Source: a virus (Duplodnaviria; Caudoviricetes). Taken from it: a DNA stretch of 26,553 bases. A program made the translations under genes and the position numbers. Under the pieces are notes generated by a model. It was not told where the DNA came from, ran no database searches, and was given only the letters and a program-made list of their open reading frames with translations. The DNA is taken from IMG/VR virus record IMGVR_UViG_3300032093_000719, positions 1 through 26,553 of that record; one strand, 5' to 3'. This document shows, piece by piece, positions 4,308 through 13,015 of this stretch (the stretch's first letter is position 1; the number at the start of each line of letters is the position of its first letter).

Positions 4308-4930
4308 CTTTCTCGGTCTCTGGCTTTGATTTCTTCGCGCTCCTGCGGCCCCAACTTCGGGCGGCGTGAGAGGATTTCGGCGAATGTAGGCCGAACCTCC
4401 GGGAGGGAGTCTATAATCTCCTGAAAAGACCTCGACGCGAGGGCTTCCTCTTGGATGGCTTCCTTGTAGTGCTTCTCCCTGAACTCGCACGCCACGTTTA
4501 CGTCGTAGTCTCGGAGCGCTTTGCAGATAGTCGGGGTGTCCAGCCGCCCGTAGATTTCGATTTTCCCGCGGCGGATCTGCGCGAAGACGTGAACTACCTC
4601 CTCTACTTTGAGCGTCTTGAACTCCTCGATAATATCGTCGACTGCCGTGTAGATATCCTCCTCGTTCGAGAACGTGTTATTGACCTTCACGGCCCGCATG
4701 AGCTGCACAAGCTCGCGCCCGAGGAGGGCCCGGAGGTAGGTGAGGTCCTCAGATTTCGCCCGTGAAACGCTCAGTCCATGCCGGTGGATTACCTCCGGCT
4801 CCCCTACTTTCAAAATGCCGTGTAAATCCCTCTCGCGTAAGGTTAACGCTTCCGTTGCCTTTGAGGGGAAAGAGACCGCGCCACCCGGCTGCGATGCTCT
4901 GGCCGATAATCCCGATTGCCGTTCGCTCAT
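4283..4930 (-). CDS. Putative replication protein (helicase loader/inhibitor by position); start uncertain
   Basis: Directly follows the initiator; helical composition. The start is either the ATG at 4930 (about 180-nt overlap) or a TTG near 4813. Confidence 0.5.
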   Translation of the reverse strand: MSERQSGLSARASQPGGAVSFPSKATEALTLRERDLHGILKVGEPEVIHRHGLSVSRAKSEDLTYLRALLGRELVQLMRAVKVNNTFSNEEDIYTAVDDIIEEFKTLKVEEVVHVFAQIRRGKIEIYGRLDTPTICKALRDYDVNVACEFREKHYKEAIQEEALASRSFQEIIDSLPEVRPTFAEILSRRPKLGPQEREEIKARDRERWQQSGQP

Positions 4931-5513
4931 TGTTGTTTGAGAGTTTCTGAAGTGAATGTAACGCCGTCTGTTGTGAGACGTGGGACTTGTACTTGAACCC
5001 GAACTCTTTCGCCCGGTACTCTTTCCAGTTCTCCCACGCGTTCGAAAAGTCGGAAGAATCGAATGGAAGAACAACCTCCTCCTTTTTTTCCTCCACCACA
5101 CCACGCGCACGCGTGTTCTTTCTAGTATCCTTTAAACTACTCTTTTTAGTAGTCTTTATAGTATGTGTTCGGATTTGAACTTCTTCAGGTTCAGATTTGA
5201 ACTTCTCAGAGTTCAGATTTGAACTTCTGGAGTTCAGAATTGAACAAGTTCCGATTTGAACAAGTTCAGAAATGAACAACTTCCGGCTGGATGCGTAACC
5301 GTCCCGAGAGAGGTATCCGAGGTCCAGAAGCTTCTTGATTGTCTTTCGGATTTGCACCTCCGACGTGTCGCACCGTTGGGCGAGGAATTCATTCGAAGCG
5401 AAACAATCCTTGCCTGTATCGGCGTAGGATTGAATAACCGCGAGGAAGATGCGTTCGTGAAGGGAGAGAGGGAGCGCCCAGATACGTTCCGGGATCCAGA
5501 GACCGTGGTTCAT
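4749..5513 (-). CDS. Replication initiator (lambda O-like, N-terminal winged HTH)
   Basis: CFASNEFLAQRCDTSEVQIRKTIKKLLDLGYL HTH, a central repeat-encoded linker, and C-terminal AWENWKEYR..IIGQSIAAGWRGLF. The start at 5513 is ATGA-coupled to the Cro-like gene. Confidence 0.85.
   Translation of the reverse strand: MNHGLWIPERIWALPLSLHERIFLAVIQSYADTGKDCFASNEFLAQRCDTSEVQIRKTIKKLLDLGYLSRDGYASSRKLFISELVQIGTCSILNSRSSNLNSEKFKSEPEEVQIRTHTIKTTKKSSLKDTRKNTRARGVVEEKKEEVVLPFDSSDFSNAWENWKEYRAKEFGFKYKSHVSQQTALHSLQKLSNNNERTAIGIIGQSIAAGWRGLFPLKGNGSVNLTREGFTRHFESRGAGGNPPAWTERFTGEI
5167..5277. repeat. Six palindromic iterons GTTC-N6-GAAC; probable replication origin
   Basis: Copies start at 5167, 5189, 5211, 5232, 5248 and 5264. 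AT-rich tract at about 5118-5165; all inside the initiator gene. Confidence 0.8.
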
Positions 5514-5731
5514 TCGATTTGTTGCTCGGTACGGGTTACGAGTTCTGCAATCTCGCCGTAAGAGAGTCCCGAATATCGATGAAATTCCCGAATGTGCTTC
5601 AGGAACGGAGCCGGGTTCTTGCGTCCCCAGTTGTGGATACACGCTTCTGTAACTCCGAAGTAGGCCGCGGCTCTGGTCAAGGTCCCGAAATGAAATCTCA
5701 GAACGGTTTGGAGTTCGGTAGGCTTTCGCAT
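5510..5731 (-). CDS. Cro-like HTH DNA-binding protein
   Basis: HFGTLTRAAAYFGVTEACIHNW fits the Cro/YdaS HTH pattern; upstream of the initiator. Confidence 0.75.
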   Translation of the reverse strand: MRKPTELQTVLRFHFGTLTRAAAYFGVTEACIHNWGRKNPAPFLKHIREFHRYSGLSYGEIAELVTRTEQQIE

Positions 5732-5871
5732 TGTTGGATGAATTGTTCCGCTTCTTCGCGGGTTAGGTTTCCGAGACGCATCAACCCAGACAAATTCGCG
5801 AACGGGCTGGTCCTCCAGTACACCCGCAAATCTGTCTGAGTTGTTTTGTCCTGTGCAATGTATCGGGCCAT
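5698..5871 (-). CDS. Hypothetical protein (57 aa)
   Basis: The start MARYIAQDK overlaps the upstream stop (TAATG). Confidence 0.6.
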   Translation of the reverse strand: MARYIAQDKTTQTDLRVYWRTSPFANLSGLMRLGNLTREEAEQFIQQCESLPNSKPF

Positions 5872-6233
5872 TAACGGCTTGCGATTTTGTCGCGAAGCTC
5901 GAGAAGCCCGATAGCTGTGCTTTCGATATCCTCCGGTGTTCTCGATCCGAGAGCGATGGCTTGACCTACGGACCAGCTTGCGTCGATGCGGCGCTGTGTG
6001 TCCGGAGAAGCCCCGAAGCTCTTTTGCTCCGGTCGCTGGAGCTTCCATTTCGTGAGGCCGCGCGGGTTCGGTTTCGCGTCCACGATTTCTACCTCGTCCC
6101 CGACCTTCCACGCGTCGGGCTTCTTTGCGTTTACCTCTCCGGCGCGGTTGTCCTCGAGGGTTACTTCCATGCGGTACATGAGTCCGTACTGTGACTCCCA
6201 CGTTCCGCTCTGCTGAATCTCTGCAATCTTCAT
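5871..6233 (-). CDS. Probable single-stranded DNA-binding (OB-fold-like) protein
   Basis: Beta-rich GTWESQYGLMYRMEVTLED..WKVGDEVEI; position in the replication module. Confidence 0.45.
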   Translation of the reverse strand: MKIAEIQQSGTWESQYGLMYRMEVTLEDNRAGEVNAKKPDAWKVGDEVEIVDAKPNPRGLTKWKLQRPEQKSFGASPDTQRRIDASWSVGQAIALGSRTPEDIESTAIGLLELRDKIASR

Positions 6234-6400
6234 TGCTGTAAGGTTTTAGGGTGTGTTTCGATGAACTTGTTGAGGTGGTCGATAGCTACGTCCACGTTGT
6301 GGAGGTGCCATTCGATGCCGTAGGGCTCCCCTTCTGCGAGGAGCTTGAGGAAGAACGAGTACAGCTCGTTCACGTCCTGCTTGAATTCTGGTCGTTGCAT
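6230..6400 (-). CDS. Hypothetical protein (56 aa)
   Basis: Hand translation MQRPEFKQDVNELYSFFLKLLAEGEPYGIEWHLHNVDVAIDHLNKFIETHPKTLQQ. The stop overlaps the ATG at 6233. Confidence 0.7.
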   Translation of the reverse strand: MQRPEFKQDVNELYSFFLKLLAEGEPYGIEWHLHNVDVAIDHLNKFIETHPKTLQQ

Positions 6401-6408
6401 TGCTGAGA

Positions 6409-6430
6409 CAAATAGAGGGGCCGAAGCCCC
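6409..6430 (-). terminator. C(UUCG)G hairpin; weak terminator or attenuator after the first early gene
   Basis: GGGGC-TTCG-GCCCC followed by TCTATTT; 17 nt are identical to 13564-13580. Confidence 0.5.
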
Positions 6431-6431
6431 A

Positions 6432-6629
6432 TTAGTTTTCTGCGATTGTGTAGCGGGTTCCGATAGCGTAACGGGCTGGCATCGTTTCGATATTTCCGTT
6501 CTCCGTGAGGACCTCGACGTAGAAGGTGAACTGGTCCTTCACGTGTCCGATAATCGTGAGGCGAAAATCGACGTTCTGTGAATCGTTGTAGAGAACTGTC
6601 GTGCCGAAGGGGAGGGTTCCGAGGGTCAT
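6432..6629 (-). CDS. Hypothetical protein, first gene behind promoter P1
   Basis: ORF track; ATG about 22 nt after the -7 box. Confidence 0.75.
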   Translation of the reverse strand: MTLGTLPFGTTVLYNDSQNVDFRLTIIGHVKDQFTFYVEVLTENGNIETMPARYAIGTRYTIAEN

Positions 6630-6651
6630 GTTTTCCGGTTGTTTGATGGCT

Positions 6652-6684
6652 CAAAGATAAACAATCTTTTTTCTTTCCTCCAAA
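6652..6684 (-). promoter_or_regulatory. Bacteroidota primary-sigma promoter P1 (-33 TTTG, 21-nt spacer, -7 TATCTTTG)
   Basis: Minus strand reads TTTG-GAGGAAAGAAAAAAGATTGTT-TATCTTTG; AT-rich upstream region; heads the early operon. Confidence 0.88.
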
Positions 6685-6713
6685 TTAATCCGGAATTATT
6701 TTTCTGCATAGGG

Positions 6714-6750
6714 CAAAAAAAGAGGGCCGCCCCACGTTTGGAGCAGCCCC
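6714..6750 (-). terminator. Rho-independent terminator ending the late/lysis operon
   Basis: GGGCTGCTCCA-AACG-TGGGGCGGCCC (11-bp stem with G.U pairs) followed by TCTTTTTTT. Confidence 0.88.
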
Positions 6751-6770
6751 CATCAAACAACAATGATGAA
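6714..6770 (-). ncRNA. Candidate antisense small RNA or 3' UTR regulator
   Basis: Unstructured seed UCAUCAUUGUUGUUUGAUGG, complementary to early leaders, followed by the terminator. Promoter-like TTTG-N18-AATCTTTG upstream. Confidence 0.4.
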
Positions 6771-6792
6771 CCGACAAAGATTCGGAGCGAAT

Positions 6793-7008
6793 CTACTCCC
6801 CAAAGAAGGAAAGCGACAAAGGGAGCACAGAAATAGCACACAAAGCTACCAGCGGCCACGTAGCCCCCGACTCAATAATCTCGTAACAGGCTGTAGACGC
6901 AATTAGACCGCCCACCGTTCGCTTCGCGGACCACCGCCGAAGGTCTCCCTTGGTCTTGAAGATTTCGGTTAAATCTAGGCCCTTTAAAATCGATAGTAGC
7001 GGATTCAC
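6793..7008 (-). CDS. Small membrane protein, holin-like (71 aa)
   Basis: GTG start overlaps the upstream stop; RWSAKRTVGGLIA is followed by two hydrophobic segments; last gene of the lysis cassette. Confidence 0.65.
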   Translation of the reverse strand: MNPLLSILKGLDLTEIFKTKGDLRRWSAKRTVGGLIASTACYEIIESGATWPLVALCAISVLPLSLSFFGE

Positions 7009-7163
7009 TTGTTCCGACCCAAGAATACCGCGTTCAGGATCCGCTTCGCGATATCCAGAATCGCGTCGTCCTTCTTGGTCTCCGTGAGCGCCGTAAACGT
7101 TCCCAAAAAGCCTATCAGAGCCAGCAGCAGCTCGGCCCAGTTTTCTGCGAAGAAATCCCACAT
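7005..7163 (-). CDS. Small membrane protein, holin-like (52 aa)
   Basis: Hand translation MWDFFAENWAELLLALIGFLGTFTALTETKKDDAILDIAKRILNAVFLGRNK: TM helix plus TxTKKDD motif. Not in the ORF track. Confidence 0.75.
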   Translation of the reverse strand: MWDFFAENWAELLLALIGFLGTFTALTETKKDDAILDIAKRILNAVFLGRNK

Positions 7164-7180
7164 TTTTGCGTGTTTAGTGA

Positions 7181-8038
7181 TTAAGTAGCCTCTCTAATAA
7201 CGACCTCTATCTTCCTATTGTAGCCGTCGTCGTCCATTCTTCGTGCAGGTTTCATATCAACCCACCACCCTCCGAGGCGCGGCTTCTGGAATCCCTTCTC
7301 TACCTCCCATCCCGCGAACCGGTCCAGCTCCTTGTAGCTTCCGAGTTTTATGTGGTGTACTACCCCGTCCCGGATCCGTCCGTACTTGTTAATCCTTTCG
7401 ACGGTAATCGGTACGTGCCACTTCTGGTGGGTGTGGCCGCTGACTATCATATCTGCGTCGGGCCATTCCTTCTGGTCTATATCCACCGCAAGGACTCCCT
7501 TCGACCTAGGCGCGTTCCCTCCGTATCCGTGGTGAAAGTGCAGCTTGTAGGTGCAGTCCGCTGCGCGCTTCCTTCCGGTAGTCTCAGTGAACCGAAAGAA
7601 GATCCACCCGGCGTAGCTTCCTACGTGGCCCGCTCCTAGCAGAGCCGAAAGACGGTCCAGAGGCGAAGTGCTCAACCTCTTTTCAATATTCGTCTCGTGG
7701 TTCCCGCGGCCGAAGAACTTTATCTGATTCTTGTACTTCTTCAGGTACTCGGCAGAATCCTCTATCACGTCGTCGAGGTACGTAATGGACTTGTACTCTG
7801 GACGTAGCCCGGAGTAGCTTCTGCGAGGGTCGTACATCCCCTGCATGAGGTCGAACCAGTCGCCAAAAACAAGAACACTCGCGTTGGTAGCGAGTGCTGT
7901 ATCGAGGTGTTTTGTAAGTAGGTCCCGGTCGCAGTGGGTCGAGTCGAAGTGAACGTCCGAAATCAAAAGAAACCGGCCTACCTCTCCGGGAAGCAGGCTA
8001 GGTTCTATCATGTAGACGGTGGGGTAAAGCTGCTTCAT
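7181..8038 (-). CDS. Calcineurin-like metallophosphoesterase
   Basis: All five motifs present: SDVH, GDWFD, GNHE, HHG, GHTH. Confidence 0.9.
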   Translation of the reverse strand: MKQLYPTVYMIEPSLLPGEVGRFLLISDVHFDSTHCDRDLLTKHLDTALATNASVLVFGDWFDLMQGMYDPRRSYSGLRPEYKSITYLDDVIEDSAEYLKKYKNQIKFFGRGNHETNIEKRLSTSPLDRLSALLGAGHVGSYAGWIFFRFTETTGRKRAADCTYKLHFHHGYGGNAPRSKGVLAVDIDQKEWPDADMIVSGHTHQKWHVPITVERINKYGRIRDGVVHHIKLGSYKELDRFAGWEVEKGFQKPRLGGWWVDMKPARRMDDDGYNRKIEVVIREAT

Positions 8039-12958: not shown

Positions 12959-12963
12959 ACTGC

Positions 12964-12992
12964 AAAGAAAAGGCCCCGCAGTACGCGAGGCC
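12964..12992 (-). terminator. Rho-independent terminator between the tail tube gene and the glycosyltransferases
   Basis: GGCCTCGC-GTACT-GCGGGGCC followed by TTTTCTTT. Confidence 0.75.
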
Positions 12993-13015
12993 CGTTCTAA
13001 CCAAAACAACCACCC

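Follow-up and report, generated by a model that had tools for sequence, protein, structure and literature searches.

The window analyzed here (the whole stretch of 26,553 nt, a complete phage record with a 127-nt terminal repeat) carries, between the last gene of the late lysis block and its terminator, a U/G-rich tract complementary to the starts of early and replication genes in the same phage. The element is real, conserved, and co-varying, as seen directly in the complementarity, its limitation to early starts, the conserved terminator, and the clade-specific fit of the tracts to their own starts. Because the tract matches these early and replication starts, it likely acts as part of a small RNA by which their expression is lowered. 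Judging from sequence, we consider it reasonably probable that the tract is the seed of a trans-acting, multi-target phage RNA that lowers early and replication translation.

All recognized genes of the window are on the minus strand (38 ORFs were scanned), as are the promoters, tract, terminator, and target sites described below. The identified products are terminase, portal, tape measure, amidase, an O-like initiator, NinG, and an ECF-type sigma factor. The closest isolates are the Nonlabens phages P12024S and P12024L, with 25% capsid identity, and a host search returned three genome matches, all to non-Bacteroidota MAG contigs that are probably mis-binned. The original prediction was right that the genome has no recognizable CI repressor: six-frame searches of the window found no integrase, S24/CI-type peptidase, HTH_3 protein, or tyrosine recombinase, and no antirepressor was found among the 38 ORFs. 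With neither integrase nor CI there is no sign of lysogeny, and the immunity circuit that had been suggested is unsupported. A cro-like gene gave a weak P22_Cro match (E 0.002), under the cut-off. Two early promoters were recognized from sequence, P1 (6652–6684, TTTG-N21-TATCTTTG, with the Bacteroidota −7 consensus) and P2 (2915–2947, TTTG-N21-TACCTTTG); together they follow the pattern TTTG-N21-TAYCTTTG, which is of the Bacteroidota type in the available part of PMC6847099. Palindromic or near-palindromic stretches that share a TTTGGAGGAAA block lie upstream of the −33 boxes of P1 and P2 (6688–6700 and about 2945–2962) and are candidate operators for the cro-like protein. The initiator gene contains short tandem iteron-like repeats of the TTTGAACTTCT type at 5190–5275, a probable replication origin.

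The seed tract, GGUUCAUCAUUGUUGUUUGAUGG (6750–6772), lies before the terminator in the 3′ UTR of the last lysis-block gene (6793–7008; 71 aa, hydrophobic, no family match), upstream of which are the amidase and holin-like genes. Its predicted fold is a weak 5-bp stem presenting the loop UUGUUGUU (6756–6763), which is unpaired with a probability of 0.93–0.99 in three RNA models. The 23-nt seed core is identical in 8/8 close relatives, and the adjoining linker and lysis codons vary. The intrinsic terminator that follows (6715–6751) consists of a 13-pair GC hairpin with an AACG loop (6735–6738) and a U-run, so the hairpin claimed at this place is real (6751–6722 plus U-run, z −5.25). The late lysis mRNA probably includes the tract at its 3′ end, because the stretch from the hairpin at about 12,960 to the junction hairpin showed no terminator other than two weak intragenic hairpins. 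The tail-tube terminator of the window (12960–13010, −) also has a G/U-rich tract upstream, one with no start-region match, and the U/G composition may therefore be partly generic. An opposite-strand ORF of 47 codons starting at 6764 was rejected as it is not conserved. Rfam gave nothing above the gathering score in the window or in 12 relatives, and six weak matches within 5500–7300 all fell below the cut-off. Four of seven sequencing runs were compared with the window, and all consisted of contigs with small word shares. One RNA run has even coverage across all 30 bins, the pattern expected of DNA; two contigs stop inside the hairpin (6733 and 6736), and assembly alone explains such ends.

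The four perfect matches originally reported, at 4927–4940 (14 nt), 6638–6649 (12 nt), 2899–2909 (11 nt), and 5729–5736 (8 nt), are all present, and shuffled controls bear the longer ones out. In 5,000 dinucleotide shuffles of the 31-nt tract, sites of at least 11 nt averaged 0.12, the probability of at least three such sites was printed as 0.0000, and that of a best match of at least 14 nt was 0.0012. Furthermore, matches of at least 10 nt occur at 3/16 early starts in the window, whereas matches of at least 8 nt occur at 0/19 late starts. With opening costs included, early starts bind the tract better than late ones (p 0.0007; 17 versus 16 hand-picked starts), one top early score (4307) relying on a non-conserved linker.

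The predicted targets differ in strength. The 14-nt match at 4927–4940 (−17.5 kcal/mol) lies at the start of a 215-aa gene that follows the initiator; pairing there spans the AUG at 4930 and has the best energy among 33 starts. This site sits within the LSNNNE codons of the initiator and may in part reflect them (the chance is about 0.012 given LSNNNE), and AUG 4930 is a putative start. The 215-aa gene and the initiator overlap by about 180 nt (4749–4930), and the ATG of the downstream gene derives from N-E/Y-E codons, an arrangement that recurs in several clades and is absent in L201. At P1, the target comprises the leader and the first early start codon (6627–6649; 12-nt match, −9.7 kcal/mol), and at P2 the leader (2899–2909; 11-nt perfect match, −12.2 kcal/mol). 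A further target, overlooked originally, is the start of the O-like replication initiator (ATG 5513, site 5504–5535; PHROG replication initiation O-like), where pairing is gapped, with helices CAACAAA and AUGAAC. In a genome-wide duplex scan, this site (−25.8) ties with the 4930 start for best and P1 ranks fifth; with other scan sizes they come fourth and sixth, respectively. After opening costs, the initiator site retains −13.1 kcal/mol. The cro-like start is a weak predicted target: its 8-nt match (−9.7 kcal/mol) exists as claimed but carries little weight alone, as there are about 20 other 8-nt matches.

Is the unit found beyond the window? Using the last lysis-block gene as an anchor, we retrieved 80 of 142 relatives' loci, and a hairpin with a U-run follows the anchor in 73 of these 80 (four were too short and three had none). 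An AACG or AGCG loop caps 62 of the 73 junction hairpins, and 70 have a U/G-rich tract upstream, the detection script being one that chooses the hairpin with the richest tract. In 33 aligned homologues picked for having the AACG loop, all 10 pairs change on both sides and 97.6% of the cells are paired. The closing pairs of these AACG/AGCG loops vary freely, and such loops also cap some terminators elsewhere, both phage and host. In loci with further genes after the anchor, a search model built from the homologues places the unit at a later late/early junction (L116, L188), and in L162 it is located elsewhere, before an early promoter. The cultured phage P12024L has a TATATTTG box, a U-rich tract, and a terminator 3′ of its holin gene; its best start matches, 12 and 11 nt, are both at promoter-proximal leaders, and 8 of its 59 starts reach an 8-nt match in a genome that is AT-rich.

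Several relatives show related arrangements. In L019 (570–680, +; z −3.0), a further promoter–terminator unit, consisting of TATCTTTG, a long stem with an inner hairpin, and a terminator, lies between the seed unit and an early promoter and is possibly a second ncRNA. L035 (5047–5110, +) has a second U/G-rich tract with an AACG hairpin in the early region, before another promoter, with 9-nt matches at two start regions. The early region of L178 holds repeated promoter–leader cassettes with 12–13-nt tract matches, and a copy of the terminator hairpin lies among them. L255 (plasmid pFA13 of Fulvitalea axinellae) resembles a phage-plasmid, with genes for a tape measure, an amidase, ParA/ParB, and a replication initiator.

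Does the RNA have a promoter of its own? The original prediction named a near-consensus promoter at 6775–6804 (−), which we rejected. Its AATCTTTG element (6782–6775) lacks T-12, a position nearly invariant in F. johnsoniae promoters in the part of PMC6847099 available, and is carried by only one of 8 close relatives (L001, whose anchor is 99% identical); its spacer is 18 nt, and those of P1 and P2 are both 21 nt. Since this promoter fails, the predicted RNA length of ~55 nt is unsupported as well. A non-canonical alternative, TTTG (6820–6817)-N21-TAGATTCG (6795–6788), could instead be used (6788–6820). It has the 21-nt spacer of P1 and P2, incorporates the stop codon of the lysis gene, occurs in 7/8 close relatives, and would give an RNA of about 69 nt starting near 6782. 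This candidate differs at two positions from the TAHHTTTG consensus given in the same part of PMC6847099, so that no promoter is established in the window's clade; as the conserved alternative is thus also non-canonical, the RNA may be a late 3′ end. A word search for late promoters gave nothing convincing. Of 28 representatives, 12 have a strict −7 box ahead of the tract, compared with 10 of 462 other stop codons; these boxes are 36–63 nt before the stem, and some sit in codons. The canonical box is present in clades B, C, N, H2, I, O, and U, and clades B and C have a stand-alone unit, in which the lysis gene has its own terminator and after it come TATCTTTG, the tract, and a second terminator. 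In 16/56 distinct anchor genes, the x-P-L codons (any first residue) read NTA CCT TTR, which resembles a −7 box (TACCTTTR) and may be a promoter inside the gene; these lie in its last 40 nt (L021, L032, L035, L057, L062, L069–L080).

The tract sequence is clade-specific (anti-UCAAACAAC, anti-UCAAAUCAAACAGA, anti-AAACCAAACA, anti-CUAUGAAAAAU, anti-AUGAAACAA), and, as the original prediction expected of related phages, the tracts fit the early starts of their own genomes better (20 clades, p ≤ 0.0025), with no such effect at late starts. Across 20 clades, which are not fully independent and whose stems in this discovery set were placed by eye, tracts had 1.38 start-region sites in their own early regions versus 0.55 in permuted ones (maximum p 0.0015), and 0.15 versus 0.15 in late regions. 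Shuffled tracts gave 4.1 sites versus the 36 observed. Even the adjacent leader taken alone pairs better with its own tract (−13.8 versus −11.6 kcal/mol when permuted; median p 0.001, 20 clades). In the 28 representatives, 45 matches of at least 9 nt fall in 130 kb of early sequence, 33 of them at starts, compared with 7 in 154 kb of late sequence (one at a start) and 15 on the opposite strand; seven representatives had no 9-nt match among the matches listed. Comparing each clade with its nearest relative, the own match exceeded the cross match in 10/13 pairs and fell short in 1/13 (p 0.002).

A second set of 10 clusters with automatic calls gave a weaker signal, with a median p of 0.016–0.032 at 8–9 nt (maximum 0.075) and no significance at 10 nt; three of the 10 clusters evidently had wrong hairpins, one being a discovery contig. 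This set was drawn from 86 distinct junctions, leaving out 23 with no terminator within 130 nt, 17 with <2.5 kb downstream, and 27 resembling discovery tracts. Single sites vary between clades. The start within the C-terminal codons of the initiator is matched in clades A, B (with wobble), and C, and the initiator-start pairing was not seen at the starts of distant clades, outside the window's clade. In L006, the P1 leader is swapped and the tract unchanged, leaving a 6-nt match. In most GC-rich relatives, the top free-energy sites are intragenic, and scans of this kind, run with no accessibility term, are noisy there.

Could the tract act in cis? A late transcript that reads through the terminator might pair its tract with the P1 leader, which lies 100 nt downstream, and so remain untranslated itself, a safety catch that we regard as unlikely. 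The read-through RNA is predicted to fold exactly so, and in clade F the tract follows the adjacent leader: a tract C is always opposite a leader G and a tract U opposite A or G, changes that probably represent one or two events. However, of 37 loci, 22.5 have their best match at a distance, against 8.5 with an adjacent one and 6 with none; in clades J, I, O, S, and V it is distant starts that are matched, the adjacent leader being unmatched, and clades B and C carry the stand-alone units. The distant matches could be accounted for in cis by early leaders sharing one motif; that the best match is usually far away nevertheless favors action in trans.

The main targets might instead be host mRNAs, with their A/C-rich leaders and AUGAAA-type starts, the phage early genes simply copying host-type initiation. 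The tracts of several relatives carry UUUUUCAU or UUUCAUAG; FopS-10, a repressor of host susC genes according to the available portion of PMC11697453, has such a word at its 5′ end too. We nevertheless find this improbable as the main function, because tracts fit their own phage better than its nearest relatives; also, 80 gut Bacteroidales starts, a distant proxy and hence a weak test, included 8–9-nt matches in four and 10-nt matches in none. Host targeting is compatible with an anti-early RNA, and the two are not exclusive.

The tract could also be a generic 3′-end feature, serving termination, stability, or protein binding, and complementary by composition only. G/U-rich tracts do precede other late terminators (window ~12,990; L188:1494; L085:2691), and tracts of other clades still match early starts at 0.55 per pair. 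Against this stands the own-versus-other excess in both the permutation and nearest-relative tests. Moreover, in 43 tail-tube-anchored loci used to view 3′ UTRs, the tail-tube tract varies among near relatives, whereas the junction core does not, and 10 gut Bacteroidales terminators, a small and distant control, have no tract (TTG/GTT words 0.4 versus 3.4). We therefore consider a purely generic role quite improbable. A DNA-level role as an opposite-strand ORF leader, protein-binding site, or invertible promoter end is very improbable: tract and P1 leader do form a 12-bp inverted repeat and many tracts contain CAT, but the opposite-strand ORFs (2–112 codons) share no common length and are absent in 10/28, a canonical opposite-strand −7 box occurs in only five junction loci (the window not among them), no junction among those listed is flipped, and no tyrosine recombinase was found.

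The preferred reading, an anti-early RNA acting in trans, has parallels among known systems. In an accessible, conserved seed that is complementary to several initiation regions, the predicted RNA shares one defining feature of trans-acting base-pairing sRNAs. GibS and FopS repress SD-less Bacteroides mRNAs by start-region pairing in the excerpts available of PMC7366714 and PMC11697453, and they are built in a similar way, with a U-rich, single-stranded 5′ seed ahead of an intrinsic terminator. As described in the same portion of PMC11697453, FopS RNAs of Bacteroides thetaiotaomicron have a host-sigma promoter, pair at the initiation region of the first genes of SD-less operons, and include one 3′-UTR-derived member and one copy seen in a phage. 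The window unit is predicted to have the same single-stranded 5′ stretch and Rho-independent terminator, and its tract occupies a 3′-UTR position; its promoter candidates are non-canonical with respect to sigma-ABfr. Membership by the R1/R1′ seed was rejected, the window seed sharing just 5 nt (UUCAU) with FopS-10 in a comparison by eye with a 5′ end taken from a primer table. Eight distinct relatives carry an 8-nt FopS-like word, and some share 9–10 nt with the FopS-10 5′ end. Unlike FopS, seeds of the window type differ between clades and are matched to early genes of the phage itself rather than to host glycan transporters, and the element is usually present as one copy with an AACG-loop hairpin. 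No FopS/GibS match was obtained from Rfam in the window or relatives, although Rfam 15 may not hold the model.

GcvB of enterobacteria is similarly a multi-target RNA that silences ACA-containing translation enhancers upstream of starts (PMC3879156, available part). The predicted targets of the window RNA are ACA-rich. GcvB is Hfq-dependent. It differs from the window element in serving a chromosomal amino-acid regulon in SD-using hosts, and it has no Rfam match in the window. Bacteroides are described as lacking classical RNA chaperones in the excerpt of PMC11697453. As presented in the available part of PMC12197685, c4 antisense RNA of phages P1/P7 is a trans RNA that blocks an mRNA of its own phage near the ribosome-binding site by phage-specific pairing, as proposed here, but it targets antirepressor mRNA in temperate-phage immunity. 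The window element would target several early and replication starts, and its structure is seed plus terminator. Identity with c4 or P4 CI RNA was rejected: neither had an Rfam match at E up to 5 within 5500–7300 or at the gathering score in the window, which has no antirepressor, integrase, S24 peptidase, or HTH_3 protein that we could find. StxS of Stx phages also acts in trans on phage and host mRNAs in the accessible section of PMC12197685. Its targets, however, are other ones. StxS originates from the 5′ end of the late transcript, and the window element lies at the 3′ end. Flavo-1 RNA (RF01705) had no match in the window, nor in 14 control genomes. By analogy, then, the anti-early element would work like FopS/GibS and GcvB and, like c4, would have own-phage targets, being a member of none of them. 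No report of it was found in a literature search covering non-subscription papers, and upstream tracts are not addressed in the part of PMC13613805 available.

How would such an element act? An RNA of 55–80 nt that carries the seed (open as a loop in the window's clade) and ends at the hairpin would probably be released from the lysis mRNA or also be made apart from it. This RNA would bind early and replication mRNAs of the same phage across their A/C-rich leaders and AUGs, presumably hiding the AUG and the adenine-rich initiation region used by Bacteroidota ribosomes, in which such a region replaces the Shine–Dalgarno sequence. Located at the 3′ end of the late transcript, the RNA would rise late, so that the products of two strong host-sigma promoters and the replication genes would be damped as late transcription rises. 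An own host-sigma promoter would add an early feedback brake.

We found no description in the literature of how small lytic-type Bacteroidota phages shut off strong host-type promoters, and the element recurs in dozens of relatives of a small aquatic phage. It is directly testable, because the cultured phage P12024L has the same layout. We tentatively propose, as a possibility short of an even chance, that in this CI- and integrase-less family of aquatic Bacteroidota phages the early-to-late switch is made partly by RNA, through an anti-leader seed that can be re-tuned and co-evolves with a tag on early leaders and replication starts; as the tag is common to clades, silencing may extend to a superinfecting relative or to host mRNAs. 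If true, a multi-target RNA that co-evolves with the early leaders of its phage would give FopS/GcvB a phage counterpart, the conserved UCAAAC-type leaders would be explained, and the element would offer a compact, programmable repressor for SD-less Bacteroidota.
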